Made by a program: the position numbers and the translations under genes
In this document: positions 3,001 through 64,000 of the stretch, one piece after another
Numbering within the stretch: the stretch's first letter is position 1
Layout of the letters: every line of letters begins with the position of its first letter
Notes under the pieces: model-generated
Seen by the model: only the letters and a program-made list of their open reading frames with translations
Database searches by the model: none
Told to the model about the DNA's origin: nothing
NCBI GenBank assembly: GCA_965214775.1
Contig: OZ243974.1
Location: forward strand, 352,001 to 416,000
From: Nitrosopumilus sp.
GTDB lineage: Archaea; Thermoproteota; Nitrososphaeria; Nitrososphaerales; Nitrosopumilaceae
Direction of reading: 5' to 3'
DNA length: 64,000 bases

Positions 3001-6000
3001 GCCGTGGAATTGATTGTCACGGCAGAGCCATCATCTGTAGTGGCGCCCGGATCCGTGTACGGGGAGTCGCCCATCTCGTGCTCAAGAGGGTTGTCGCCGT
3101 CAAGCGTGATTATAGGGGCGTTCGTATCCTGGACTATGACGGTTCTAGTCACAGTATCGGGGACGTTGCCCGCCTCGTCTGCCGGCGCGGTATAGGTTAC
3201 GGCGTATCTTCCCACGGAACCGGTGTCGACGGTGGCGCCCCCGACTGCCGCCTCGGTGGTCGTGTACGCCGGGTCGTTGTCAGATACCGTGGCGCCCTGC
3301 TCGGTGTACGTGCCGCCCTTTTCGATCGTGATGTTCTGGTCGCCTGTAAGAGTGATGACGGGCTTTGTGGTGTCCTGCACCTTCACGGCCCGGGTGGCCG
3401 TCGCCGTGTTGCTTGACGGATCGGTGGCAGTGTAGGTGACGGTATAGTCGCCGGACTGGTCGGCGTCCACGTTGACAGAGTCGTCTGTCACAGTCCCGTC
3501 GTAGAGCGGATCGTTGTCGGTGGCAGTGGCGCCGGCGTCCGTATAGTCGTCTCCCAGCTCGACTGTGGCCGGATCATCGCCGGCTACGGAGATAGTCGGC
3601 GGCGTCGTGTCGCGCACCTGCACGGTCCTGGAGGCCATGCCCTCGTTGCCCTCCCCGTCGGTGGCGCTGAAGTTTACGACATAGTCGCCGTGCACGTAGA
3701 CGTCGACTGCCGTGGAATTGATGATCACTGCAGAGCCATCATCTGTAGTGGCGCCCGGATCCGTGTACGGGGAGTCGCCCATCTCGTGCTCAAGAGGGTT
3801 GTCGCCATTAAGGGTGATTATAGGGGCGTTCGTATCCTGGACTATGACGGTTCTAGTCACAGTATCGGGGACGTTGCCCGCCTCGTCTGCCGGCGCGGTA
3901 TAGGTTACGGCGTATCTTCCCACGGAACCGGTGTCGACGGTGGCGCCCCCGACTGCCGCCTCGGTGGTCGTGTACGCCGGGTCGTTGTCAGATACCGTGG
4001 CGCCCTGCTCGGTGTACGTGCCGCCCTTTTCGATCGTGATGTTCTGGTCGCCTGTAAGAGTGATGACGGGCTTTGTGGTGTCCTGCACCTTCACGGCCCG
4101 GGTGGCCGTCGCCGTGTTGCTTGACGGATCGGTGGCAGTGTAGGTGACGGTATAGTCGCCGGACTGGTCGGCGTCCACGTTGACAGAGTCGTTTGTCACA
4201 GTCCCGTCGTAGAGCGGATCGTTGTCGGTGGCAGTGGCGCCGGCGTCCGTATAGTCGTCTCCCAGCTCGACTGTGGCCGGATCATCGCCGGCTACGGAGA
4301 TAGTCGGCGGCGTCGTGTCGCGCACCTGCACGGTCCTGGAGGCCATGCCCTCGTTGCCCTCCCCGTCGGTGGCGCTGAAGTTTACGACATAGTCGCCGTG
4401 CACGTAGACGTCGACTGCCGTGGAATTGATGATCACTGCAGAGCCATCATCTGTAGTGGCGCCCGGATCCGTGTACGGGGAGTCGCCCATCTCGTGCTCA
4501 AGAGGGTTGTCGCCGTCAAGCGTGATTATAGGGGCGTTCGTATCCTGGACTATGACGGTTCTAGTCACCGTATCGGGGACGTTGCCTGCAGCGTCTGCCG
4601 GCGCGGTATAGGTTACGGCGTATCTTCCCACGGAACCGGTGTCGACGGTGGCGCCCCCGACTGCCGCCTCGGTGGTCGTGTACGCCGGGTCGTTGTCAGA
4701 TACCGTGGCGCCCTGCTCGGTGTACGTGCCGCCCTTTTCGATCGTGATGTTCTGGTCGCCTGTAAGAGTGATGACGGGCTTTGTGGTGTCCTGCACCTTC
4801 ACGGCCCGGGTGGCCGTCGCCGTGTTGCTTGACGGATCGGTGGCAGTGTAGGTGACGGTATAGTCGCCGGACTGGTCGGCGTCCACGTTGACAGAGTCGT
4901 TTGTCACAGTCCCGTCGTAGAGCGGATCGTTGTCGGTGGCAGTGGCGCCGGCGTCCGTATAGTCGTCTCCCAGCTCGACTGTGGCCGGATCATCGCCGGC
5001 TACGGAGATAGTCGGCGGCGTCGTGTCGCGCACCTGCACGGTCCTGGAGGCCATGCCCTCGTTGCCCTCCCCGTCGGTGGCGCTGAAGTTTACGACATAG
5101 TCGCCGTGCACGTAGACGTCGACTGCCGTGGAATTGATGATCACTGCAGAGCCATCATCTGTAGTGGCGCCCGGATCCGTGTACGGGGAGTCGCCCATCT
5201 CGTGCTCAAGAGGGTTGTCGCCGTCAAGCGTGATTATAGGGGCGTTCGTATCCTGGACTATGACGGTTCTAGTCACCGTATCGGGGACGTTGCCTGCAGC
5301 GTCTGCCGGCGCGGTATAGGTTACGGCGTATCTTCCCACGGAACCGGTGTCGACGGTGGCGCCCCCGACTGCCGCCTCGGTGGTCGTGTACGCCGGGTCG
5401 TTGTCAGATACCGTGGCGCCCTGCTCGGTGTACGTGCCGCCCTTTTCGATCGTGATGTTCTGGTCGCCTGTAAGAGTGATGACGGGCTTTGTGGTGTCCT
5501 GCACCTTCACGGCCCGGGTGGCCGTCGCCGTGTTGCTTGACGGATCGGTGGCAGTGTAGGTGACGGTATAGTCGCCGGACTGGTCGGCGTCCACGTTGAC
5601 AGAGTCGTTTGTCACAGTCCCGTCGTAGAGCGGATCGTTGTCGGTGGCAGTGGCGCCGGCGTCCGTATAGTCGTCTCCCAGCTCGACTGTGGCCGGATCA
5701 TCGCCGGCTACGGAGATAGTCGGCGGCGTCGTGTCGCGCACCTGCACGGTCCTGGAGGCCATGCCCTCGTTGCCCTCCCCGTCGGTGGCCTTGAATGTTA
5801 CGACATAGTCGCCGTGCACGTAGACGTCGACTGCCGTGGAATTGATTGTCACGGCAGAGCCATCATCTGTAGTGGCGCCCGGATCCGTGTACGGGGAGTC
5901 GCCCAGCTCGTGGCGCAGCGGGTTGGGTGGGTTGAGGTTTATGACAGGGGCAGTCATGTCGCTGACTGTGACTGTCCTGGTAACAGAATCGGGCATGTGG

Positions 6001-49768: not shown

Positions 49769-50389
49769 GTGGCATCTCTAGATAAAGATCTTATGATATT
49801 TAATAAGATTGATGCTGAAAAAATCAAGCAAGTCTTCGACAGGATTGATGAATCCATTGTGCGTAAACCGTTAAAAAAACAGGTGCTGGATGAGATAACA
49901 TGAGACAATTTGTCGGATATGGATGTACTTAGCATCAACCGAATATGCTTTAACTTTACAATATCCGATCAGCCATATGAGATGACCAAAACGATAGACC
50001 GTTCTGATATTGACAAAGATAAGCAAGACGTTCTTAAACAATGCTTAAGCTCGCTGAAGAGCAGGCTGTCAAAAGAGATACTAGAAACTGAGTACAACAT
50101 AATGCATTTGCACGACTTTGGTCATTCGCATATAAGGCACCTTCAAATTGCTTCCGAATTTAGGCCGATCTCAAACGATGATGGCAGGATAATCAAAATA
50201 ATCCCATCCCTGGTTTTTTCGGGACATCTTCACAACCTAGGCAGCGAGGACATAAGGCCGCTGAACTTTCATCTTGATCTGCAACACGCCAAAAGATTAA
50301 TGACGGATATACAAAACAGTATCACAAACGTGGAAAAGGAGATACGTACGTTTCGGGAAAAGTTTGGAGATGATGCAATTGCAATATGA
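49769..50389 (+). pseudogene. COMM-domain-like protein (~206 aa) with in-frame TGA at 49901-49903
   Basis: GTG 49769 is in frame with the track ORF at 49910; helical N-terminus plus C-terminal LQIASEFRPI..IIPSLVF..LNFHLDLQHAKRLMTDIQNSI. Confidence 0.55.
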
Positions 50390-51095
50390 AATAGAATATC
50401 ACGATCCAGAAAAAATTATGGATTATGGACAAGATTCCTCTGCAAAGTGGTTAAGATCATCCCATGAGAGAAATATCGCAGATTGCTACGAAAAGGAATC
50501 CGAGAGGAAGTTAATGCACGGTAGGCGTTATTGGAGAGATGAGTATTATGAGACCGTACTGGACAAAATTAGGATTCGTCTGCCACAGAAAATGTTTGAA
50601 AATGAGTCGTGTTTTATCCTTTTGCCCGAAACGAGCCATATGGAACATCTTCATAATGCTATCAATGATTTGCCATATATGGTACGAGTTTTTACTAATG
50701 CAAGTGAGGTAGACAACAAATCATCCACTGCCATGCCTATGTCTGCTAGACATGTGAAAACGTCAGAAGGCGCAAGTGAACCGACTGCACATGTCTTGGA
50801 GAATCTGGCAGATGACTGCGGACTGCCGCGCGAATATGCCTCAAAAATTAGAGACTCCTTGGAGGACGCATCACGGTTCATATCTGACAAGGGAGCCAAG
50901 TACAGCATACTGCACGAGCTGTTCACAGATCCGGAGTTTCCAGACTGGAAGATGATCAAAGTCACCTTCAAGATAGACACGGAATCATCACACGCCGCCC
51001 ATGACGAGCTCAAAGATCAGATCTATGAGATCGTCAGCTCGAAACTGACCGATCACATACTTGAAAACATAATCATAAAATTTGACAGGCCATGA
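50373..51095 (+). CDS. Hypothetical protein preceding HEPN (possible degenerate MNT-like C-terminus)
   Basis: C-terminal FTDPEFPDWKMIKVTFKID; overlaps both neighbours. Confidence 0.65.
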   Translation: MQLQYEIEYHDPEKIMDYGQDSSAKWLRSSHERNIADCYEKESERKLMHGRRYWRDEYYETVLDKIRIRLPQKMFENESCFILLPETSHMEHLHNAINDLPYMVRVFTNASEVDNKSSTAMPMSARHVKTSEGASEPTAHVLENLADDCGLPREYASKIRDSLEDASRFISDKGAKYSILHELFTDPEFPDWKMIKVTFKIDTESSHAAHDELKDQIYEIVSSKLTDHILENIIIKFDRP

Positions 51096-51559
51096 TCAAG
51101 CCCACGGAGTTCCTAGATCATGCAGAGAGGATAATCACAAATGAAAACTGCCCACAGGAGGTGGAGTTCAGATGTGCCGTGAGCAGGGCATATTATTCCC
51201 TGTATCACGAGGCGTACGCAAAGGTCTTCAAATACAAATCTGTGCTGTCTGACGTGATCTGCGAGATTCTGGACAAAAAAGGCCGACCGTATGATAAATC
51301 AAGGATCGAATCGCTAGACCAAAATTACATATTGAGAATAGGCACCAACCTTCACCAAACAATACCCAAAACATTGACAATGATGGGAGAAAAAAGGATA
51401 GGGAACGATTTTACCGCATTCAGGGATGATAGAAACGTTGCAGACTATGACATACATGATCGGTATCCCGACAACAGGGCACGCGAAAAGGTAGCGGCGA
51501 TGAAAAAATTAATTCTAGAGATAAAAAACATCAACGGTGTCAAGTGTGGTAAGTTTTGA
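51092..51559 (+). CDS. HEPN-domain protein
   Basis: RCAVSRAYYSLYH and DRNVADY (R-x4-Y). Confidence 0.85.
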   Translation: MIKPTEFLDHAERIITNENCPQEVEFRCAVSRAYYSLYHEAYAKVFKYKSVLSDVICEILDKKGRPYDKSRIESLDQNYILRIGTNLHQTIPKTLTMMGEKRIGNDFTAFRDDRNVADYDIHDRYPDNRAREKVAAMKKLILEIKNINGVKCGKF

Positions 51560-51759
51560 TAAACCGATCATCATGATTTAGCCGCAGGCCAGAACAGAAC
51601 CAGAAAACGATTCGTACTCTTGTTATTCGGCATCATACTCCCATGAGACGGAAGCGATCAGGAACCGCACAAATTGGGGGCATATTGACAAGAGTGGGCG
51701 TTCAAGTCATCTGCCTGTAACTGCCAACCGACCATTGTAGGATCTGGTATGAGGCGTGT

Positions 51760-51940
51760 ACGAGACGTTATATCAAATCTTATCTGTAGCGGACGCCATA
51801 TTATCCGTGTTGGGCCCAAGAGCCGAAGTAAACTTGCCACACATGAGGGCGTGTATGAGACTGGCTCAGAGTAGGCGGACGACGAAATGCCACATAATCG
51901 AGGGTAAATGGGAGTTTTCCGTTCAGTTGGGCACACACAC
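51760..51940 (+). ncRNA. Candidate IS110 bridge RNA
   Basis: The non-coding left end holds four segments matching the target and donor junctions in the expected order (see findings); boundaries are approximate. Confidence 0.55.
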
Positions 51941-51950
51941 TTTGATCAAA

Positions 51951-51960
51951 AAGGAGGTGA
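51951..51960 (+). promoter_or_regulatory. Shine-Dalgarno of the IS110 transposase
   Basis: AAGGAGGTGA 4 nt before the ATG at 51965. Confidence 0.75.
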
Positions 51961-51964
51961 TAAA

Positions 51965-53124
51965 ATGATCAACATAGGAATAGATGTTCATAAGAAGACA
52001 TGTATAGTAACCGTCAAGGACCAGACTGCAAAGATACTGGAGCAGACGGAGTTTTCCAACACGTCATACGGGATAAAAAAATTTGCCGTACAGATCAAAA
52101 AGAGATATGCACGACGCAAGATCCGGGCAGTCTACGAGGCAACAGGAAACTATTGGATACTGCTGCATGATATGCTTGAAGACAACAAGATAGACACAAA
52201 GCTTGCGCATCCTGCCAAGACCAAGGCCATAGCGCATGCAAAACTAAAGGACGACAGGGTGGACTCTGAAGTGCTGGCAGACCTGCTCAGGACGGACATG
52301 GCGTACGAGTCGTTCGTGCCTGACAGATACTACAGGGACCTGCGCGGCCTCTCAAGGGCCAGGATCGACGCCGTACGCCTGGGAACCGGCGAAAAGAACA
52401 AGATAACTGCCATACTTGCAAAGGTATGTGGTCACCTATCCCCGCCAATCAGGCACGAATTAGTATACACAATTATGATTTCCATGCCTAGCCAGTAAGG
52501 GGACGTGACCACATACTTGCAAAGTATGCCGCAAAGCCCCCTACAAAGGGAAGATTCACCGTACAGGGAATCCAGTGGATGCACGAGCTCTGCAGAGACG
52601 ACGGCAAAAAGAAGTACAACATCTCAGAGATGGACAAAATGATGATAAGCACAGGACTGGACAGGATTGAGATGATGCGACAGCAGGTAGTGGAATTTGA
52701 GCGCAGGATTGCAGCCATCTGCATTAACGATCCCAGAATCAAGCTCCTGATGACGGTTCCCGGAATAAGCTACGTGACCGCACTTGCCATAATATCCGAA
52801 ATAGTGGACATAAAGAGATTTGCCACAGCAGAAAAGCTTGCAGCATACGCGGGCCTGATACCGTCACATCACAACAGCGGTGAGACCATACGGGGCGGAT
52901 CCATAACTCGGACTGGTTCTGCATGGCTTCGGTACGCCATCGTAAACGCAGCCACGGTAGGGGTGCAATACGATACCAGGATGGGTGAGAGATACGACAG
53001 AATAGCCAGACGCAGGGGAAAGCAAAAGGCCAAGGTGGCAGTAGCCAGAACGCTTGCAAAGGTGATCTGGCACATGCTGACTGATGAAACGGAATACCGC
53101 ACGCAGGACAAGGAACTCACGCAA
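51965..53124 (+). pseudogene. IS110 transposase (segments 51965-52423 + 52525-53124 + 63290-63334; 367 aa reconstituted)
   Basis: IGIDVHK, YEATG, KDDRVDS, LMTVPGI, YAGLIPS..NSG, AVARTL. Confidence 0.92.
52424..52516. mobile_element. 93-bp MITE with 8-bp TSD TTGCAAAG inserted in the IS110 transposase
   Basis: TIRs GTATGTGGTCAC / GTGACCACATAC; removal restores ILAK-YAAKPP. Confidence 0.9.
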
Positions 53125-53137
53125 GGAACTGGGAAGT

Positions 53138-54286
53138 TTACGGTAGATGATTCTCCCTGGGAAATGCCGGTAGACTGGATTTTGAGGCGTTCTGAATGAT
53201 GGTCTTCCACTTGTCCTTGCCCTGAATCCTGATGCCTGCCCTGTCTGCTGGTGTATCGCCTTCCAGTCCTTGGTGGGGCCTGATGTAGTTATGGTGAATC
53301 TGCATTCCTGTGAATATGGCAGAGTCATCCTTCTTGATTCCCCTGACTACCTTTTCCCTTGCCCTCAGTGTATTTCCGTTGAAGGACTCCATCTGGTTGT
53401 TGTTCATGTCACCCGCCATGTGGATGTGACGGCGGTGCTCGGTGTCCTTGTGAAGAAAGTTCTTTGGCCTGTACTGCTCATTCCACGCATGGTGAAAGTT
53501 GGCAGCTCCGTCAGAGATCAGGGTCTTTGGGATTTTTTTGGCCTTTCTTTTGGCATCTGTAAACATCGGGGAGACATCATCATTTCCCTTATGTTCTGCC
53601 ACCATCTGGGATAGCCAGAAACGGGTCTCGCTGTCCAGCATCGCAAAGAGGTATTTTCTGTCGCCCTTGATTTTCAGGTAGAGCTCGTCTGTCCTCCATT
53701 GCTCACCTACTTGTGGAGTTATCCTGTCTAGATACTTCTCCATGAGGTTTACATATTTCTTGACCCAGTTCTGAACCGTCCTGTATGTGACGGTAATTCC
53801 AGTCAGTGTCAATGATTGTGCTGTCTTTCTTGATGATTCCCCGTTAAAGTAGAGGTTCATTGCCATTGTGATTTGGTCTGGGGTGGCACTCATGTTTTCA
53901 AATCCTAGGTTGATTGAAAACTTGCGTTTACAGTCATTACATCTGAACATCTGAACATCATGGTTCTTGTTGTGTCGTACACCCATTTTTACTATGTTTG
54001 CAGAATTGCAATACTTGCAGGAGTCAATGGTGACTTCAGGGATTACAACATCATCTTTGACTTTTTGGTGAATCTTGGCAGATATTTCAACTGCGTGGAC
54101 ATGCTTGCAGCAAGTCCTGCGGAACTGGTGATCCTCGCAGGAGCAGGCCCAGCCATATTCAGTGGAAATAACGTCATGCTGTTTGTCTCTTGATTGTGAG
54201 TTTACTTTGTAATGGCTTTCATTTATTCGTACAATTTGGTTTTGTTTTTCTGCTATCTGCTTTCCTCTGATCTCTCTTTGGTTCAT
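53138..54286 (-). CDS. IS6/IS240-type DDE transposase with N-terminal SWIM finger and zinc ribbon
   Basis: CSCED..CCKH, CKYC..CNDC, WRTDELY, LISDG, NNQMESFN, HHNYIRPH..L.G.TPA. Confidence 0.92.
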   Translation of the reverse strand: MNQREIRGKQIAEKQNQIVRINESHYKVNSQSRDKQHDVISTEYGWACSCEDHQFRRTCCKHVHAVEISAKIHQKVKDDVVIPEVTIDSCKYCNSANIVKMGVRHNKNHDVQMFRCNDCKRKFSINLGFENMSATPDQITMAMNLYFNGESSRKTAQSLTLTGITVTYRTVQNWVKKYVNLMEKYLDRITPQVGEQWRTDELYLKIKGDRKYLFAMLDSETRFWLSQMVAEHKGNDDVSPMFTDAKRKAKKIPKTLISDGAANFHHAWNEQYRPKNFLHKDTEHRRHIHMAGDMNNNQMESFNGNTLRAREKVVRGIKKDDSAIFTGMQIHHNYIRPHQGLEGDTPADRAGIRIQGKDKWKTIIQNASKSSLPAFPRENHLP

Positions 54287-54429
54287 GCGGATCGCACCTC
54301 AAAAATTAATATTGGATTGGAATCAAAGAGATTCAAGGACTCGGTGTCAACCGCGTTCTTCGTCATTGGGAGGATCATTCCCTCTGACTCTTGATTTTTC
54401 TTCATAGTCTTTCTCGCTCCTTGATTCAT
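54283..54429 (-). CDS. Possible 48-aa ORF upstream of the transposase
   Basis: ATG at 54429; its stop overlaps the transposase start (ATGA). Confidence 0.35.
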   Translation of the reverse strand: MNQGARKTMKKNQESEGMILPMTKNAVDTESLNLFDSNPILIFEVRSA

Positions 54430-54517
54430 ACCAATAAATAGTTGATATATCATATAAATCTATACCAATAATTAATTGACATAAAAACATATAATGGGAG
54501 GTTGTGTGATTCATTGT

Positions 54518-54736
54518 ATGGGGACTGTCGTATACCGCCAGCGTGGAGACAAAGAATATGTTTACTACGTCTATTATGATGAAAAGCGAAGAACAGAGGT
54601 TTATTGCGGACTGTCTTCAGATCCGGAATCTGACAAAAAAATCCTGCAATGCAAAAAAAACGATCTTACCAAACAGAAAGCCAACATTACAAAAGAACTT
54701 GAAGTAATTACAAAAAAAATCCAACGTGGAACATGA
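54518..54736 (+). CDS. Small putative DNA-binding protein with coiled coil
   Basis: RGDKEYVYYVYYDEKRRTEVYCG beta-hairpin motif; ATGA overlap with the MTase. Confidence 0.6.
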   Translation: MGTVVYRQRGDKEYVYYVYYDEKRRTEVYCGLSSDPESDKKILQCKKNDLTKQKANITKELEVITKKIQRGT

Positions 54737-55762
54737 TGTCTGCTACAAAAAACACCCCGAAAACAATGATCCCGTTCATAAACACAATCCAGTGTGGCGA
54801 CAGTGCTAGGATTCTAAAACAGATTCCAGATGATTCGATAGATTTGGTTATCACGTCACCCCCCTACTTTCGGCAACGGGAATACGCTGGCTGTGAGGTG
54901 GGTGGTGAAAAACACGTGGAAGACTATATCGATGCGGTCATGGATGTGTTCCGTGAATGTGTGAGAATTACAAAGAGGTGCGGTAGCGTTGTCTTCAACA
55001 TGGGTGACAAATATGAAAACGGTTCTTTAATGCTGATCCCTTACAAATTTGCAATCCAAGCCATGAATGTAAAAAATGTAAAACTGGTAAATGATATAAC
55101 TTGGATCAAAAAGAATCCCACACCTAGACAGTTCAAAAGGCGCCTTGTAAGCAGTACTGAGCCATTCTTCCACTTCGTAAAATCATCCGATTACTACTAT
55201 GACATAGATGCATTTCAGGTCCGTAAAGACGACGACAGCCTGCCACCCACCAAAAACACGACGATTGGTAACAGATACAGAACAATGATCAGGGATTCGG
55301 AGCTTACCGCATCCGAAAAAAGAAAGGCGGTAAGAGAGTTAAACAAGGCCGTCAAGGAAGTGAAGGACGGCACAATAACAGGATTTAGAATGAAGATACG
55401 CGGCATACACGCACCTGCATTCGGCGGACAAAATGGTGGCAGAAAGATTCAGCTTGACAAGAACGGATTTACAATAATCCGGATGTCTGGAAATCCTCTA
55501 AAGCGGGATACGATAACCAGTAGTGTAGAAAGCCTCAGATGGAACAAACATCCTGCCATATATCCAGAGGTCGTAATATCGGAGATGATCCATCTCCTCA
55601 CACCCCCCCCCCAACAAGACCATAATCCTTGATCCATACATAGGAAGCGGCACTACGGGAGTGGTTGCCAAAAAGACAGGCAGGCAGTTTATAGGCATTG
55701 ATATAAATCCCGAATTTTGTGATATGGCCGCCAAACGTATTGAATTGGTTGATGAAATATGA
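54733..55762 (+). CDS. Beta-class N4/N6 DNA methyltransferase, frameshifted in a C10 tract (55603-55612)
   Basis: TSPPY, HPAIYP; the SAM motif [11 protein letters not shown] lies in a different frame after the poly-C. Confidence 0.9.
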
Positions 55763-56862
55763 ATGTAGAACATCACCACTGTCTGAAAATATTAAAAAAG
55801 TGCCTCAAGGAGGCCGGTGTGCATGTGCCAGTATGTGGTGATGACGTAAAAAAACACCTAGATGTCATTATTTCAAACAGTGAAAAAAAGAAGGCGGTTT
55901 TGGCAGTAACAGTGACATCGCTGACAAAGAAGGCGGTAGACCCGCAACAAGACATCCGGCGTCATCAGAGTGGGCTTGATGGTGGATATTCAGGAAGAAC
56001 CCTTGATACCAAGACAGTCACCCCGTTTCTCAAGGCCAATCAGTTTCCAGCCATGTCGGAGTCCGGATGGCTTACACGATCCTTGGAACAGAATCAACCA
56101 TACACATTGGATTACAAAGGCAGTGTCACTCCACATAAACTAAAGCAGGCATTCTTGTGCACGTTGGACAGGGTGCAAAACCACGATGAATCCCCCATAG
56201 AACTGCTAACATATTTGTTGAGTGGATTAATCAAACAACGAGATGAAAATACCAAACTCAGACTAGCCAAACCCGTAGACCTGCCAATCAGGACAATCAT
56301 GTCATATCTAAATAAGCATTTCATGTCTCAGTATAGCAGTGCAGGAGGTTCCAGACTACCGGTGTTGGCGATATACGCTGCATATCAACAGATGATTTCC
56401 GAGGTGGGGCGATATAGAAAACATGTCCTAAAACAACTCGAATCACACACATCACCAGACAGGCGTTCTGGTGCAACTGGAGACATTGAGGTTGCAGACG
56501 AGCAATCCAAAATTTTTGAGGCCGTAGAGGTGAAACATCGGATTAGAATAACGCCTTCTTTGGTAAGAGAAGCACATATGAAATTCAAATCAGAGCCAAT
56601 CAAACGGTACTATCTATTGACCACGGATGAGCAGGATCAGAACAGTGAAGAGATAACTGCCGAAGTTGTAAAAATCAGTCAGATTCATGGATGTCAGGTT
56701 ATTGTAAACGGGGTCATGAACACCCTGAAATACTATCTTCGTCTATTAAAAACACCCGACGACTTTGTGCATAATTATGTGCGTCTGATAGAAAAGGATG
56801 AGTCAGTAAAGTTCGAACATAGACAACGCTGGAATGACATTGTTCAAAATCAGGGAGCGTGA
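55759..56862 (+). CDS. Putative type II restriction endonuclease
   Basis: GDIEV...FEAVEVK PD-(D/E)xK-like motif; translationally coupled to the MTase. Confidence 0.75.
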
Positions 56863-57252
56863 CACTCCAATGGGACGGATTTATCATGGCAGACCAACCA
56901 CTCACACCAACGGAAAATGTCCAAAATGCGGAGTAATTGGATTAATGGATTTGTTGGGTACCGCAACCATATTTGATCTTTTTTGCGTTCCAACAATTGA
57001 GTTTTACACGCCTGATTTAGGTATTACGCAACAATACGCGACAAGAGTCTTGCCCCCTCCGGAAGATATCGCGTGGAAGGCACGGTAGTAAAGACCCCGG
57101 CAGGCAGTGTCACCTGTGGGGCATGCCGGCAATCACAAATCCTTGAATGCCATCGACCGTTTGCAGGGGTGTCTGATCATAAAGCACTTCAAGAATTTTT
57201 ACCGGCCGGTACAAGCCCTTGCCGCAGGTCGGGCCCGCCGTGATCGCGCTGG

Positions 57253-60200
57253 CTAGCCGAGGCCTGCCGCATGCAGCAGCCGCACCTGCCGGGCCGACAG
57301 CTCGGCGCCGTACACGCGCAGCTCGTCAAGAACCGAGTCGATCCTGTCGGGATCCCACCAGGTGGTGGTCCTCACGGTGAACGCATGGTCGTTTGTCGTG
57401 CTGCCTGCCAGCCCCAGGCCCCTGCGGTATTGGCCATAGTCCCGGTGCTCGCCGTCGATATACGCATTCAGGCCCTCCTTTGCGCCCGAGCCGTCGTACG
57501 TGAATGCGATATGGTGCCAGGCCCCGTCTGACATGTTCAGGTGGTTGGGGGTGTGCACGTTTATGAACGTGGAGTTGTCGTGTATCAAAAGCAGGATCCT
57601 GTTGGGCGCCCCTCCCCATATCCACACGTACAAGCCGGTATGGCCGAACGACTCTGCCTTGGACATTATCATGGTGCTGTTGTTGACGGGCACGTCCTGC
57701 CTGAGCCAGAACGCTATGCTGAACGGGTCGGTGCGCCCAAAGTCAAAGTCGGCCTCGCCCGCAAGGGCGACGTTCGTAGAGCCGTCAAGCTGCAGCCCCC
57801 TGCCTATCCTGCCAGGCACGTACGTGACATCCCCTGCAGCCGCCGTGCCGTTGTTGTCCCCCGTTGCATCTGTCAGGCTGCCCTCAAAGGACAGGCCTGC
57901 CACGAGCTCCTCGTAGGGGGCCGTTACGGCCACGGGATCGGCGATCGTGACCCGTATGCCGCCCATCGGACTTCCGTCCCCGTCCACCAGCCCGACCCTG
58001 AACGTGCCTCCCGCCGCTGCGTCCGCGTCGTCGGCGGTCCTCAGCAGTATCGTATACTGGGAGCCGGGCGCGTTGATCGTGTGGTACCTTACGTCGTACG
58101 CGGAGCCTGCGTGGTTGTCAAGCTCCATCGTGCGGCGCCGCTGCCCCGGAAAGTCCGTGCACACCGCAGTGTCGCACCCGGAGCCCTCCGGGAATCCCCC
58201 AAAGTCGTCCACGGTAAGCGAGCTGCTGTATATGGCAAGGGCGTCGTGCTGGTGCCTTGCGCCATCAACGGTCACCGTATACTCGAAGGTCTGTCCCGGA
58301 AATATCCTGTCGGGGCCCGTGATCCTCCAGGTGGTGTCCCCGTCCGTTATCGTCCTCGTGGACGGCGGCATCACCGTTACCGGTATGCCTCCCACCTGGT
58401 TGTTGTTGCTGTCCATCATGCCGACTGTGGCCTGCGTGCCCGCCGGCGCATCGGCTGCCGGCTGCAGCAGTATGGTATGGCTGGATCTGGACTTTTTCAT
58501 CTTGTTGTGCATGGCAGTATACGGCGAGTCCTCGTCACTGGCTATCTTGTACGTGTCGTGCTTTTGCTCTGGAAACCCCGCGCATATCACGGTCTGGCAG
58601 TCCGTATCGGAATCGTGCCATCCGAGGTCCCGCTCTGTACACGGCAAGGGCCTCCTCTCGCGGCCTTGCCCCGTCCTCGAGTGTTACGGTATACTCGAAG
58701 GTCTGCCCCGCAAACACCCTGTCCGGACCCGTGACGCTCCACGTGGATCGGCCCGTGCTCACGGTCTGGGAGACGTCCAGGACGGCGTCAGAGGCGTCCA
58801 CGTGTATGACAAACCAGTCCCTCTGCGAGTTTGCAGAGCCGTCTGTCGCCGTGCATACTACCTCGGTGAATCCGGGAGCAAACGTCGATCCGGACTCGTG
58901 CGTGCACGATACTGCCACGACCCCGTCTACGAGGTCGGAGGCAGTCGGCGCATCGTAGCTGACTGCCATTCCACGGCCCGCCGGATCATCTACGTCTATG
59001 TCGCGCAGGCCGGAGATGGCAGGCGGCGTGGTGTCCCGTATCGTAACAGTCTGGGTGGCCGTCGCCGCGTTGCCTGCAGAGTCGGTGGCAGTCCACGTGA
59101 CTGTCGTGTTGCCCAACGGGAACGACTCTGGGGCGTCGTTTGTAATTGTGGGGCTGGGATCGGCAACGTCGGTAACAGTGGAAGTCCCATAGTCGCCGGC
59201 ACTCAGGACCGTCATGATGCCGGCAGCCTCGGCCGTATGATCGGCGGGTGCCATGATCCGGGGCGGCGTGGTGTCCTGTATCGTAACAGTCTGGGTTGCA
59301 GTAGCCGCGTTGCCCGCAGAATCGGTGGCAGTCCATGTCACTATGGTATCGCCAAGCGGGAACGATTCCGGTGCGTCGTTTGTGATTGCCGGATCCGGAT
59401 CCGCAATGTCGGATGCAGTGGCCTGCCCTATGGATACGGCAGTCAGCACGCCGGAAGCCTCGATTGTGACATCTGGGGGTGTGGTGATGCTCGGCAGTGT
59501 CGTGTCCTGTATCGTAACAGTCTGGGTTGCAGTAGCCGCGTTGCCCGCAGAATCGGTGGCAGTCCATGTCACTATGGTATCGCCAAGCGGGAACGATTCC
59601 GGTGCGTCGTTTGTGATTGCCGGATCCGGATCAACATCGTCTGAGGCCACGGCGTCGCCCAGACCCACGTCGGAGGCAGGGGTGAGGACGGCAGTCGCCT
59701 CGGCCGTCACGTCCTCTGGCGCCGTGATTGAAGGCGGCGTCGTGTCGCCTGCGTCACCGTCGTATATCCGAATGTCGTCAAGCTCCGCATCCTCGTTGTT
59801 TGAGCTGGAACGCGCCTCGAACCTCACCTTGAAGGAGTCCGACGCGTTTGAGAGGACATAGCTGTGGTGATGCCAGGCGCCGTCGTCGCCTGCGTTGTTT
59901 GCGGTAAAGTTTGCAAGTTGGATCCACGTGGTGCCGCCGTCACTGGAGGTGTGGACGTATATCCCCTCGTTGTTTGAGACGTCGGCCCCCGTCGCGACGA
60001 ACCTGTAAAAGCTGAGCACGGGCTGGGACATCTGCGTCAGGTCCACCACGTCTATCATCGTCATCGAGCACACGTCGTCGCAGTCCTCGGCTCCCCCCAC
60101 CTTGTTTCCGGGCTGGGATCCCGGAACTGGCTCTGTCGGGTCTGGCCTGATCGACCAGTACTCGTCATCGCCCGTGGTCAGATGCCACCTTGAGAGATCC

Positions 60201-61897
60201 ATCCCCTCAAAGTCCTCTGCAAAGGAGTCGACGGTGGCCTGCACCGGCGCATCAAGCGTCACGGTGACGCTGCTTGTGGCGGTTGCGCCGTCCCCGTTTG
60301 CCGATTCCACTGCGATGGTGTGGTTGCCGTTGTCCAGTCCGGTCAGGACCGATTCAAAGCTTGCAGTGACGTCGGATATGTGGGTCACCTCGACGGGATT
60401 CGTGGCAGGTACAATGCCGTCTACGTAGACCTTCACGTACTCTATCCCAGAGCCCTCAGGCTCGTAGACCCACCCCGATACTGCGATGTCTGGCACGGTT
60501 ACGGTGGATCCTGCTGCCGGGGCCGTGATCGTTATGACTGGCGGCGTGGGATCCTCGATGTTTACGTTCACCAGGTTCGAGGCAGGCGACAGCCCGTGCG
60601 CGTTTTTGGCAAATATCCTAAAGTACATGTCGTAGCCGGGATATCCGGTATGCTCGATGCTCGTGGTCGTTTCAGAGACGGTGTCGTGAAGGTTCCATCT
60701 CTGGGTGTCCGGCGACCTTTCTATTCTAAACGAGGTGATGTTAGAGCCCCCGTCGTCCGGGATGCTCCAGGCAAGCGTGATGTTGTTTCCCGACAGGGTG
60801 TAGGAAAGGTCGTCGACCGGGTCGGGTACGGTCTGCGTGGACGGCCCGACGATCGAGATCACCCCCTCCCTTGTGTGGCCGATTCTCTTGTCCGTGACGG
60901 TGTACCTTATGGTGTCAGATTCCGGCGTGGAGCTTGCCGGGGTGTACTCGAGCCGGATGGCCGTGCCGTTTGTGGTCGGGATCTTTTCGGTGGTGCTGGT
61001 GTGGCTCAGGCTTCCCTTTGTGGGGTGCTCTTTGAGATAAAACGTCAGATAGTCGCCGTCGGTGTCTATTGCGTTTATGTCGACTGTGACCCTGTCGTTT
61101 GTGGCCACGTCTATGTCCCTGTTCTGGACCGTGGGAACCTGGTTTCTGGTTGCGATGTTGTTGCAGTCAAGCGATGTCACGGTTCCTGCGATAAACGAGT
61201 TGCCCCGGCATTCCTTGCCGATGTACCCCTCCGAGACGGACGGCTGGGACAGGGAGGCTGAGGCGGGAAGGTTTGTCCAAGAGCCGTTCTGCCTTATCTT
61301 CATGCCGGTGAACTTGCTCATCGGAATTGACGAATAGTCGTCTGTGGCAGAGACGGTTCCCTCTATTCCAAAGTTGCCATGGTAGACATTATTTGGATTC
61401 ATGAAAAGCTGCGCCTGTGGGTACGGGATTGTCACGTCCGGGGTCGTGACATACACCTGGACGTTGCTTGTCAGGTACTTTTGTATCTTTACTGATATGT
61501 CATCGCCGGGATCAACGCGACCGTTTGATACTAGGTATTCTTGGTAAACATCAAGATCGCCTATCACATAATTAAATCCATAATAGGTGCTCAGGACGGC
61601 GACGCATCCAACGTTTAGGAAATGTCCTTTTGTAACTCCTGCCTCCACCCATTCCCCGGTATTTGCAACCAGCCAGCCGGCAGCTGCTGCGGTATTGTCG
61701 CATTCCGTCCTGTCTATCCACAGATCCGGCGAATCCAGCTGGTACTCTATGCCTTCGATTGGGGTAAGACGGCTGGTCTGCTGCCATACATGGCAACGAG
61801 GGTCAGCACAGTCAAAGATTCCAAATGCGTCCTGGCCATATGCAACAATACACAGTGCAAAGACTGCAAAAAACAAAACGGGAAACTTGGTCATCAT
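57253..61897 (-). CDS. Secreted multidomain protein (putative glutamic-peptidase-like domain, Ig, FN3, MAM-like, HYR x4, 2 unknown repeats, LamG); frameshift at ~58640
   Basis: Signal peptide; LAWSIPDDGGSNITSF (FN3); DTTPP.I.AP..VTWTATDSAGN (HYR); WHHIAFTYDG..LDELRVY (LamG). The ORFs 58535-61897 and 57253-58647 share a split repeat. Confidence 0.85.
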
Positions 61898-62889
61898 TTT
61901 ACCGCCGACAAGCTGTTAAAGACGGGCAACAGCTCATCAAGCGTGTGATAACGTGAATTTACGCCCATCGACGTATGTTCATCATGATGGAAGCTGATGC
62001 CTGCACGATAATGATTCAGGGCATTTCCGCCCTCAAATGCACTTACCGTTTTCCCGTCATGCGTCATCTCCCTGAAGCCCTCCCCGTAGTTGCCGGGCTG
62101 GGAACCAAAAACTTCTTTGATATATTCTATCTCATCTTCAATCTCGTCAAGAGGAACAACGCTATACTCGGCCCAAACCCTAAATCCCTCGGAGAACTTC
62201 AATTCATAGTTGGTCACGTTTTCGTTTAATACAAAGGTAGTTGGAACAAACTGTATCCTCAGCTTGCAGTCACCTGAAGGGTAGCAAGTATTGTCTGCAT
62301 ACAGCAACCGCTGCCCATCAGGAATGTATGTGGGCATCCAGTCCTCAATATGGAACCCTACTCTGGGGGTTATGGAGTATTTTTCATGCTGTGTTGCAGA
62401 CAGTCTTATCAGGTTGTCGGGGCCGACATCGTCGGGGGTTATGTCACTGTCCATGATATTTTCATAGTAGGGCCACGGGGGAGGGTATCTTGCAAGTGTG
62501 GATCTTTTGATCTCCCGCCCGTCATCGACGAACTCCACGGGAGACGAGGCACTCAGCACCACAAATCCGTCGACTTCTCCGGCATCGGGGCCGTCGATGT
62601 TGCTGCCGTGCCCGGCTTTTGCCGCCTCCGGCAGCTGCAGGTCATGGCGTTCTGCTGCCTGTGCTACCGGCACCCATCCCTTTTGCAGCAGTTTTTGCAC
62701 CGAGCCCTCACTGACGCAGGCAGGCGTTCCGCGCGTGGTCTCCATCAGCGTCTTTGAATCCCGGCACTGTATCTCCTCTAGCGCGATACCGCTTTGAAAT
62801 TGTTTGTAGGGAGTGTCAGTTTCTGCAAATGCAGGCATTGCAGATAATCCGATTGCCAGGAACAGTCCCAGTAGCGTCTTGTAGATCAC
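61894..62889 (-). CDS. Secreted protein with the thaumarchaeal P.KQ..SG..IQC..PACV..KL..KGW motif
   Basis: Signal peptide AMPAFA|E; ATGA overlap with the downstream gene. Confidence 0.85.
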   Translation of the reverse strand: MIYKTLLGLFLAIGLSAMPAFAETDTPYKQFQSGIALEEIQCRDSKTLMETTRGTPACVSEGSVQKLLQKGWVPVAQAAERHDLQLPEAAKAGHGSNIDGPDAGEVDGFVVLSASSPVEFVDDGREIKRSTLARYPPPWPYYENIMDSDITPDDVGPDNLIRLSATQHEKYSITPRVGFHIEDWMPTYIPDGQRLLYADNTCYPSGDCKLRIQFVPTTFVLNENVTNYELKFSEGFRVWAEYSVVPLDEIEDEIEYIKEVFGSQPGNYGEGFREMTHDGKTVSAFEGGNALNHYRAGISFHHDEHTSMGVNSRYHTLDELLPVFNSLSAVK

Positions 62890-63386
62890 TGGTTTTTCAT
62901 AAAAGGGATTCTATAAAAGTGATCCCTGCAATCTAGTCGTAAGTTATGCCCCATCAACGGATCAGATCTGGTTGTTGCGTAATTCCACTTGATTGATTTC
63001 TACAACATCAGTCTTCCCAGAAGTTACCCACAAGACGGCTCCAAACCTGAAATAACACAGATCAGACTGCCTGCAGGCCCGCATGTAGCCACCTGCACCG
63101 CCATGAGTCTGGCACATCCGGGAGACTGACTTAACAGTCCCATTCATAAAATCCCGCCAAACGACAGTGAACACGGCAAAATACCAAACGCAGATTACAC
63201 AGAACCTTGTAACTATTTTTTATTTATTAGATCTACCGACATTTCCCAAGGAGAATCATCTACCGTAAACTTCCCAGTTCCTCACGCAAAGAAAGTATAA
63301 AGCGATGGAATGTCTAGTAGATACGTCTGACTGAACAACGCACACTCGCAGCGGCCCGTGCAGGGAATCAGCATAATTTGATATGG

Positions 63387-63567
63387 GAGTTTACCCCTCA
63401 GGCGACACTGCTGGTCGGAGCCTTGATCACCGTGCCTACCACGTCGTATTTTCTGGAGGGGGTGAGATCTTACTGGCTGTGGTACAAATTTGCCCCTTGG
63501 GCAGCACTGCCAGCTATGGCCTTCAGGACCATGCCCCCGCGCCGTATCTTCCAAAGTGGGTAAATTC
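63387..63567. repeat. Two tandem degenerate copies of the 83-bp family B repeat
   Basis: GAGTTTACCCCTCAGGCGACACTG... and AAATTTGCCCCTTGGGCAGCACTG...GGGTAAATTC. Confidence 0.7.
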
Positions 63568-63684
63568 TTACTGCAGGTTCGGCCTGCCGTGATCGCGTGC
63601 AGGATGTAATACGTGCTACGGGCGTCCTATGGCAGACCGTGCCGGGCGCTACATTGCAGGAGTTGCCCTGCGGTGATCGGCAGT

Positions 63685-64000
63685 TCAGCCCCGCAGCCGT
63701 CTTGCGGCGACGATGGCGGCCACAGGAGCTGCTACATACATGCCGATATTCAGGGCAATAACCGAGGCGCCCAGCGCCAGCACCGAGGACTCTGAGCCCT
63801 CCTCTGCAAGCGACATTATCGACAGCGTCGAGATCATCGGGGATATGGCAATCCTTACGGCCTCGCGAAATACCGGGCTCTGGCGCTCCAGGTCGGCTAT
63901 CGCAGGTGAGAACGAGTAGTATACAGAGTTGAATCCGGCAACAAACGAGGAGCCCGAGTCAGTAGAGAGCAACGTACCGTCGCGTATCTCCCTGAGTGCC
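63685..64000 (-). CDS. CFI-box-CTERM domain protein (C-terminus; 5' end beyond window)
   Basis: LREIRD.TLLST.SG.SF..GFN..YYSFSP.IAD.ER.SPVFRE.V..ALNIGMYVAAP. Confidence 0.9.
   Translation of the reverse strand, partial: ALREIRDGTLLSTDSGSSFVAGFNSVYYSFSPAIADLERQSPVFREAVRIAISPMISTLSIMSLAEEGSESSVLALGASVIALNIGMYVAAPVAAIVAARRLRG

Follow-up and report, generated by a model that had tools for sequence, protein, structure and literature searches.

A 10-kb cargo-carrying element with a single IS6-related transposase in Nitrosopumilus, probably one of a family of archaeal unit transposons

We analysed a 64,000-nt stretch of DNA from Nitrosopumilus sp. (contig OZ243974.1, positions 352,001 to 416,000; hereafter the window), in which an element of 10,157 bp occupies positions 53125-63281. 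Coordinates are those of the window unless marked as genome coordinates, and the source genome is referred to as G000. We conclude with considerable confidence that 53125-63281 is one transposon, whose single IS6-related DDE transposase, bearing a SWIM-like module and a Zn ribbon, would act on two 50-bp ends. The element has one pair of ends, its own transposase and passenger genes, and the whole unit occurs at different sites, as expected of a unit transposon or "transporter insertion sequence" (tIS); we would class it as a cargo-carrying tIS whose lineage borders on the IS6 family. A reading made from the sequence alone (the original prediction) had proposed a single-transposase unit transposon of Thaumarchaeota that combines SWIM, Zn-ribbon and DDE modules and carries a restriction-modification (R-M) pair and secreted-protein genes. 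This proposal stood up to the analysis and can be extended to a family of elements.

Read inward, the left end (53125-53174) and the reverse complement of the right end (63232-63281) are identical at 48 of 50 positions and diverge abruptly past position 50, and both outer 8-bp flanks read TCACGCAA. The end alignment and the flank comparison thus bear out the predicted 50-bp inverted repeats and perfect 8-bp duplication; the one transposase gene, as had also been proposed, ends with its stop codon inside the terminal repeat (Table 1). Within each terminal repeat lie two direct sub-repeats, CTGGGAAGTTTACGGTAGA and CTGGGAAATGCCGGTAGA, which none of 200 shuffles equalled in score. The element lies within an IS110-type transposase gene (Pfam: DEDD_Tnp_IS110 in 51908-52498 and Transposase_20 in 52579-53199) that had already been cut into two open reading frames (ORFs) by a 93-bp miniature inverted-repeat transposable element (MITE) at 52424-52516. 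Two uninterrupted paralogs of the host gene (genome 1875168-1875279 and 2382257-2382368) contain one TCACGGAG or TCACGCAG followed directly by AGAAAG, and both window flanks map to the single paralog site with 8 bases overlapping. Because both flanks align onto one site in uninterrupted genes, these paralogs amount to a paralogous "empty site" and confirm a precise insertion with an 8-bp duplication, in agreement with the claim that the insertion interrupts the IS110 frame.

The duplication alone tells us that both ends arrived together, not that all 10,157 bp moved jointly, because an orthologous insertion in four genomes, described below, shows turnover of cargo in place. The original prediction had taken the whole element to have moved as one unit; that claim draws its support from a copy in another genome and from a two-copy relative, not from the duplication by itself. 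In G201, a Nitrosopumilaceae archaeon metagenome-assembled genome, one locus (L086) matches 53129-63267 at 99.773% identity over 10,150 columns and is unrelated outside. Against G201, a 20-kb piece of the window gives matches of 67-88% identity, and the 4.1-kb left flank reaches at most 93%, in repeats only. With 99.773% identity for the element against ≤93% for the other DNA tested, sequence divergence indicates that the element is far younger than the divergence of G000 and G201 and lies in different surroundings; the occurrence of a near-identical block between unrelated flanks in G201 likewise argues that the 10-kb unit is mobile as a whole. The window flanks are themselves repeats with many G201 matches at ≤93%, so no orthologous empty site can be named. 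The two-copy relative, a 10,265-bp element in G153, is 99.96% identical end to end between its copies and unrelated outside, with duplications CAAAATTC and TTAGAAAA; its cargo comprises two large Ig-like surface proteins and nested insertion sequence (IS) fragments. Identical two-copy elements of 4,026, 2,825 and 2,557 bp were found in G008 and G181. An exchange of flanks by inversion, checked by eye for the 4,026-bp copies in G008, does not explain why these lack duplications.

Of 201 sampled genomes of the class, 88 contain homologous transposases at E ≤ 1e-20, a count that includes G000 and the unpublished G132. At the protein level there are 1,594 relatives at E ≤ 1e-10 (90% clusters) and, with clusters at 50% and E ≤ 1e-30, 308 representatives; few source names are attached ("DDE-type integrase/transposase/recombinase"; Cenarchaeum sp. 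and Nitrosopumilus sp.). When 29 loci, one of them from G132, were taken with 1.5-kb flanks, 26 had no partner repeat, two had matches of only 13-14 nt, and one had a 60-nt pair spanning 1,970 bp. Twenty loci refetched with 20-kb flanks yielded 15 end pairs with spans of 2,557-10,824 bp, of which eight have exact 8-bp duplications, and 20 further loci from named assemblies yielded end pairs in 13 cases and duplications in seven. Exact 8-bp duplications mark at least 17 independent insertions (the window element and at least 16 further ones, with four orthologous copies counted once). Other terminal-repeat pairs with 8-bp duplications and different cargo, which the original prediction had suggested looking for, were found in G000 as well as in other genomes. 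In the G000 units the ends are of a second type (GGTTCTGTG...), the transposase is a 373-aa paralog with ~40% identity, and the 8-bp duplications are exact (Table 1). Two candidate pairs, at L117 (a 127-nt repeat without a GG tip) and L098 (degenerate in its outer part), were left out of the count of family ends that have a duplication. At one orthologous site (L105; L126; L114; G092, L070/L081), with flanks 70-83% identical and duplication TTAAAAAG/TTAAAAAA, family members of 2,456, 2,557, 3,827 and 4,408 bp carry different cargo, including Fic/DOC in one of them. This group looks like an old insertion, and a single event, with cargo turnover in place.

Several observations weigh against the interpretation of 53125-63281 as one mobile transposon. 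The window element is single-copy in G000, as is its interior at 53180-56940, and movement within G000 was not seen directly. The G201 copy has no duplication and deviates in its outermost bases (4 nt at one end, ~15 nt at the opposite end); it seems eroded and cannot itself prove clean transposition. Among bounded relatives, 7 of 15 in the 20-kb-flank set and 6 of 13 in the named assemblies lack a duplication, and the duplications at the 20 named-assembly loci were found by scanning tip offsets of ≤12 nt, a procedure that raises the chance rate to ~1% per locus. The fetched flanks held no end pair at 4 of 20 loci in the 20-kb-flank set (G068, G133, G050 and G078, with ~18 kb on each side) and at 7 of 20 in the named assemblies (L087, L096, L097, L106, L108, L109 and L111, three of them on short contigs). 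The orthologous insertions differ in length (2,456-4,408 bp), showing that content can change after insertion, and the element is a compositional mosaic (GC 0.39-0.46 vs ~0.61). In an AlphaFold2 (AF2) model of the transposase, the catalytic domain is poorly folded, with a predicted local distance difference test score (pLDDT) <50 at residues 190-235 and 287-321. All of the evidence is drawn from static genomes, which demonstrate neither activity nor a copy-in mechanism.

Contigs from sequencing runs X1, X5, X6 and X7 contained no joint that skips 53125-63281. The sole long contig joint (52461 to 63387, X1, side 25) connects two copies of a small repeat. Neither junction is bridged by 31 letters in any run contig, and X1 record 1 extends 28 nt into the left repeat. 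Contigs of X1 and X5 match the interior without differences, e.g., over 53183-57015 and 59651-62565; they come from two studies, possibly including the source sample, and do not count as independent support.

The mosaic composition raises the possibility that a ~4-kb element made up of the transposase and the R-M pair inserted in the IS110 gene and that the GC-rich block and the repeats were added later, by recombination or nested insertions. The GC step at ~56,950 is sharp, high-copy repeats lie at the block borders, and at least seven other chromosomal loci, none of them adjoining this transposase family, share 84-89% identity with 56946-59738. The varying content of the orthologous insertions in four genomes and the nested IS fragments in the 10.27-kb G153 relative point in the same direction. 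We nevertheless consider such later addition improbable, since the complete block occurs in the same order, 99.77% identical, between other flanks in G201. Assembly of the cargo must therefore predate the separation of the copies in G000 and G201, of which at least one arrived as a full unit.

A decayed composite transposon, in which one of two IS copies has been reduced to its outer repeat, is far less probable still. Canonical IS6 members do move cargo as pairs (PMC7986276; statements on published work here and below refer to the available parts of the papers cited), and solo ends of the same type occur elsewhere in the genome: the right-end module with its 50-bp repeat recurs at 97% identity at genome 1879766 and 1942716, beside different DNA. 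Yet no end-like site adjoins the transposase gene inside the element at ≤4 errors, where the only interior matches are two four-error ones (60490-60508 and 63109-63125) and the remaining other matches are scattered four-error ones. The right end holds no transposase remnant, only the 100-bp module and a MITE-like repeat, and the IS copies of IS6 composites are directly repeated, whereas the ends here are inverted (PMC7986276). A second terminal repeat within ~1.3 kb of homologous transposases, which the original prediction had named as the pattern that would speak for a composite, was not seen among the loci analysed; none of the bounded relatives is a compact ~1.3-kb IS, and their spans run from 1,970 to 10,824 bp. 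We give equally little credence to a genomic island that arose by site-specific recombination or homologous exchange, with the inverted repeats and the 8-bp repeat being incidental. Nothing specific favors it beyond the richness of the region in repeats able to promote recombination, and a 48/50 inverted repeat that abuts an exact 8-bp direct repeat at a single paralog site is not a matter of chance. Pfam revealed neither an integrase nor a second transposase among the eight ORFs of the element, and in many genomes homologous transposases are bounded by the same end architecture and 8-bp duplications. A unit transposon thus remains our preferred explanation for 53125-63281.

The transposase matches Pfam PF13610 (DDE_Tnp_IS240) at 1e-13 and 52 bits, above the gathering threshold of 27. 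Among the NCBIfam models IS6 ranks best, followed by IS1 (43 bits), IS481 (38 bits) and IS3 (30 bits); the IS6 equivalog NF033587 is matched over model positions 1-199 of 202 with 100.9 bits, under its cutoff of 125. The designation "IS6-type" used in the original prediction is thus, as far as these profiles tell, a statement of nearest family and not of clean membership: PF13610 supports the former, while the NCBIfam score below cutoff, the size, and the 50-bp bipartite ends, which fall outside the description in PMC7986276, speak against the latter.

The predicted combination of SWIM, Zn-ribbon and DDE modules holds at the level of motifs. In an alignment of 26 family sequences (40-80% identical to the query), C48, C50, C60 and H62 of a CxCx9CxH motif are invariant, as are C90, C93, C116, C119, D200, D259, E311 and K318. 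The SWIM profile itself (PF04434) matches weakly and below threshold (E 0.0048, 16.8 bits vs 19.6), and a precomputed PF04434 label is found on 4 of 120 listed relatives. The Zn ribbon scores 26.8 bits against the IS1/IS1595 Zn domain of NCBIfam, with a cutoff of 28. The AF2 model of the transposase (mean pLDDT 64.7) is confident for residues 1-190 alone and includes a confident strand-strand-helix module at the SWIM-like motif; Foldseek returned no match of this model in the PDB at E ≤ 0.001. By tblastn against annotated plasmids, 635 records matched, and all annotated features under the 25 listed matches are IS6 transposases (2 of the 25 are without annotation). The best annotated relatives are clostridial ISCpe7-type genes, with 27-28% identity over residues 74/83-364 (Zn ribbon, helix-turn-helix and DDE). 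As none of the 635 records covers 80% of the query, the first 75 residues, which contain the SWIM-like module, appear to be without counterpart in the matched plasmid records.

Bipartite ends were present in 12 of 17 end sequences taken from different elements, with direct sub-repeats of 18-24 nt within a 50- to 60-nt end, at approximately positions 5-25 and 32-52. Each of these matches was reached by ≤0.5% of shuffles. The sequences of the sub-repeats vary between elements and the layout is constant, from which we infer two putative transposase-binding sites per end.

A DNA methyltransferase was found in 15 of the 24 distinct elements scanned, nearly always beside or fused to a nuclease. The partner nucleases are of HNH type (in several elements, including methyltransferase-HNH fusions), of BsaWI, HinP1I, MunI and MvaI/BcnI types, or PD-(D/E)XK enzymes. 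Three elements, with transposases sharing 40%, 54% and 78% identity with the query, combine GmrSD_N-HNH with an EcoRI-type methylase. The other nine elements, several of them only partly scanned, carry surface proteins, Fic/DOC, DUF4760 or family-less ORFs. Two elements, L060 (in G160) and L089, have near-identical ends (GGAACTGGTAAGTTAGCG.GGCAT...) and different R-M cargo. One pairs a BsaWI-type endonuclease with an N6_N4 methylase, the other a MunI-type endonuclease with an MT-A70 methylase, which suggests that modules are swapped between closely related transposons.

In the window element, the adjacent methyltransferase and candidate endonuclease (Table 1) are supported as a Type II R-M system by a structural model and by conserved residues. 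The 367-aa protein has no Pfam match. Its AF2 model, built from 23 homologs (pLDDT 89.6), matched the EcoT38I restriction endonuclease (7edb_A) over its full length in Foldseek (E 7.8e-12, probability 1.00), and D242, E257 and K259 (D, E-x-K) are invariant in the alignment of its homologs. Relatives of this protein carry a precomputed label for PF09566, which we take to be RE_SacI; our own Pfam scan did not return PF09566. At E up to 5, Pfam gave nothing usable for the 80-aa, 331-aa and 70-aa ORFs or for several cargo ORFs of relatives, and Rfam gave no match in 50000-64000 at E ≤ 0.1.

GC content is 0.39-0.46 across 53500-56999, which holds the transposase body and the R-M block, and steps to ~0.61 at ~56,950. 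Within the GC-rich block, the 464-aa ORF overlaps the 1120-aa ORF out of frame (58535-58647) and has no signal-peptide-like N-terminus. Because the corresponding region is one continuous ORF (1221-1763 aa) at five paralogous G000 loci, the large surface-protein gene of the element is, to judge from the reading frames, most likely frameshifted. Contigs from other runs have 11 extra letters after 58625; these contigs may derive from paralogs. The arrangement of an ORF of 315-352 aa followed by a large ORF recurs as a gene pair at a paralogous locus, and the part of the cargo at 56946-59738, given its similarity to those seven or more other loci, seems to have been captured from a multigene family of the host. 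Of the predicted R-M and adhesin cassette, the R-M part gained support (PF01555 and the EcoT38I-like fold) and genes for secreted proteins are indeed present, whereas the terms "adhesin" and "host interaction" gained no such support. The 70-aa ORF is probably not a gene, because it overlaps the high-copy 126-bp repeat.

Table 1. Features of the window element and its target, and further units of the family in G000 (window positions; a dot marks a feature without strand)
Feature	Position	Strand	Remarks
Host IS110-type transposase gene, 5' part	51908-53124	+	Frame resumes at 63290-63334
Left target-site duplication copy	53117-53124	.	TCACGCAA; single in two uninterrupted IS110 paralogs
Left terminal inverted repeat (transposase end)	53125-53174	+	50 bp, GG tip; direct sub-repeats 53129-53147 and 53157-53174
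Transposase, 382 aa	53138-54286	-	Stop codon 53138-53140 inside left repeat
Transposase modules			SWIM-like CxCx9CxH, residues 48-62; four-Cys Zn ribbon, 90-119; helical DNA-binding region, ~136-187; catalytic D200, D259, E311, K318
ORF of 80 aa	54494-54736	+	Upstream of methyltransferase, overlaps its start; weak matches, above E 0.01
DNA methyltransferase (N6_N4_Mtase), 299 aa	54733-55632	+	Pfam PF01555, 1.6e-24
Type II restriction endonuclease candidate, 367 aa	55759-56862	+	Invariant D242, E257, K259
Junction of lower-GC and GC-rich blocks	56946-57252	.	Repeated sequence including inverted 87-bp repeat copy 57048-57121
464-aa ORF, Laminin_G_3 domain (Pfam)	57253-58647	-	Probably frameshifted C-terminal part of large gene
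1120-aa secreted/surface protein	58535-61897	-	HYR, Ig-like, Glucodextran_B domains; signal-peptide-like N-terminus
331-aa protein	61894-62889	-	Signal-peptide-like N-terminus; NCBIfam WING-49 domain
70-aa ORF	62962-63174		Overlaps 126-bp repeat
126-bp high-copy repeat, MITE-like	63005-63130	.	Complementary ends; ~53-69 overlapping genome matches
Right-end module	63131-63231	.	~100 bp; contains GGTTCTGTGTAATCT at 63192-63206, relic of other end type
Right terminal inverted repeat (non-transposase end)	63232-63281	-	
Right target-site duplication copy	63282-63289	.	TCACGCAA
G000 unit, 6,444 bp			Duplication TGGGTTGC; cargo beta-propeller/HYR protein
G000 unit, 3,332 bp			Duplication ACAGAACT; cargo HNH nuclease and methyltransferase
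G000 unit, 6,348 bp			Duplication AAGAAAAA; cargo GmrSD, EcoRI-type methyltransferase, GmrSD_N-HNH
G000 unit, 2,366 bp			Duplication CTCTCTGA

The GGTTCTGTGTAATCT relic faces inward, 75 nt inside the right end of the element's own type (type A), and every one of the three right-end modules has it. The 6,444-bp element of G000 (L019) shows the reverse, with a type-A-like end immediately interior to its left end (type B). Cross-mobilisation is one possibility for such tandem ends of two types. Repeats are frequent in and around the element. The 93-bp MITE in the host gene has perfect 12-nt terminal inverted repeats, a fold z-score of -6.6 and ~50 genome copies, and an 87-bp repeat with >60 overlapping genome matches lies at 63387-63473 and, inverted, at 57048-57121 inside the element at the GC step. 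Neither the 126-bp nor the 87-bp repeat matches an Rfam family. Far to the left in the window, at ~3354-5567, four matches 708 bp apart, with 74% identity to the HYR-repeat region of the element's large gene, suggest a tandem-repeat surface-protein gene.

Other loci show less regular arrangements of ends. At L063 in G153, two identical left-type 50-bp ends facing the same way are followed by one right end (8824, 16205 and 19647); the outer flanks of the left-type ends, TCTGTAAC and GTTACAGA, are mutually reverse complementary, which fits neither a simple insertion nor a textbook inversion product. A type-B end pair 300 bp apart in G000 (genome 957249-957548), with flanks that do not match, may be a non-autonomous miniature derivative. 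A type-A end pair at genome 1942716-1996292 (L022-L024), with an 8-bp flank match ATAATGAG, encloses 53.6 kb; the probability of any such match by chance among 25 end pairings is ~4e-4. Its left end is 47/50 identical to the right end of the window element. Its right end has diverged and lies next to part of a transposase gene truncated by another IS, and a further end is located inside at 1984496. Besides several IS copies, the interior codes for a Laminin_G protein, a paralog of class I tRNA synthetases and, within a long cluster of genes on one strand, a VirB4/HerA/TrwB-like ATPase.

IS6 elements are described as 0.7-0.9 kb long (up to ~1.8 kb in clades h and i), with a transposase gene only, ends of 15-20 bp starting with GG, 8-bp duplications and transposition by cointegrates only, and their cargo as moving only in two-IS pseudo-compound transposons (PMC7986276). 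The window element departs from this description in size and content (10,157 bp and at least six further ORFs, with relatives of 1,970-10,824 bp); it shares the 8-bp duplication and the GG tip, the latter on a 50-bp repeat with two sub-repeats. Its nearest likeness is to the long IS6 elements of Clostridia (clade h, ISCpe7-type), which have the same GG tips and 8-bp duplication (PMC7986276, PMC6807381); zinc-finger extensions, N-terminal as here, are carried by clostridial clades h and i (PMC7986276). Those elements are cargo-free IS of 1.2-1.8 kb with 15- to 20-bp ends, whereas the present family has archaeal hosts, 50-bp bipartite ends and a SWIM-like module. It has also been argued that long bacterial and archaeal groups do not belong in the IS6/IS26 family (PMC6807381). 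The tIS ISDsp3, the only passenger-carrying IS6 member cited in the available text of PMC7986276, likewise has a single transposase between inverted ends and a passenger unrelated to transposition. ISDsp3 carries one hypothetical gene and is known as a single copy; here there is a family with 1 to 6 or more genes, up to ~10 kb long, multi-copy, and with recurrent R-M cargo. IS26-type pseudo-compound transposons share the 8-bp duplication, the mobilisation of accessory genes and a presumed related transposase chemistry, but they consist of two directly repeated IS and involve cointegrate formation and resolution, whereas the window unit has one transposase and inverted ends. Tn3-family transposons, too, are unit transposons with long ends and passenger genes; they are replicative, with 38-bp ends and a 5-bp duplication. 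The window element has an 8-bp duplication and, by Pfam, no Tn3-type transposase or resolvase. R-M pairs reportedly behave as selfish mobile cassettes, according to Kobayashi and co-workers; in the present case the vehicle is defined, namely, a transposase family with set ends and duplications.

A 2019 survey described thaumarchaeal IS-like transposons as having 1-2 genes and stated that DNA transposons with passenger genes were not detected in archaea, thaumarchaea included (PMC6563490). IS6 is not mentioned in the available text of that survey, and its supplementary tables may list some of the present loci as IS or cryptic elements. The literature that we searched contained no description of this transposon family.

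We propose that one transposase would act on both 50-bp ends, each through two putative binding sites of ~18 bp, and would join them to a target cut with an 8-bp stagger. In an IS6-like copy-in reaction, both ends would attack a target on another DNA molecule or on the sister chromosome, the element would then be duplicated by replication, and the host would resolve the cointegrate through homologous recombination between both 10-kb copies. Copy-in fits the nearest family and the many copies without duplication (7/15 and 6/13); these, like the identical multi-copy elements, are compatible with it and not diagnostic; as between copy-in and either cut-and-paste or copy-out-paste-in transposition, we regard the balance as about even. 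R-M systems can cause post-segregational killing. The R-M pair could thus both defend the host and stabilise the element, and R-M pairs may be the commonest cargo of the family because both effects would favor them. The secreted-protein genes would represent a copy captured from a host multigene family, partly decayed in this element.

On balance, we lean towards seeing in these elements the first recognised family of cargo-carrying archaeal DDE unit transposons, a lineage beside IS6 with an N-terminus of SWIM-like and Zn-ribbon modules and bipartite 50-bp ends, one that moves at least 10 kb and serves as the main shuttle of R-M systems, and sometimes of surface genes, between species of the archaea most abundant in the ocean. 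Among the relatives analysed, cargo carriage is the normal state of the family, which is widespread in ammonia-oxidising-type archaea and recurrently carries R-M genes, and the family crosses species-level boundaries, as seen in an element 99.8% identical between genomes whose other tested DNA is ≤93% identical. This would provide a concrete mechanism for the spread of R-M systems in ammonia-oxidising archaea. For IS6-like transposases, it would represent a new substrate architecture, with two putative binding sites in each end and an additional zinc module. The family may also carry a conjugation-type gene cluster, if the 53.6-kb end pair is genuine. To our knowledge, ammonia-oxidising archaea have lacked a genetic system, and a natural transposon with defined ends could seed genetic tools.

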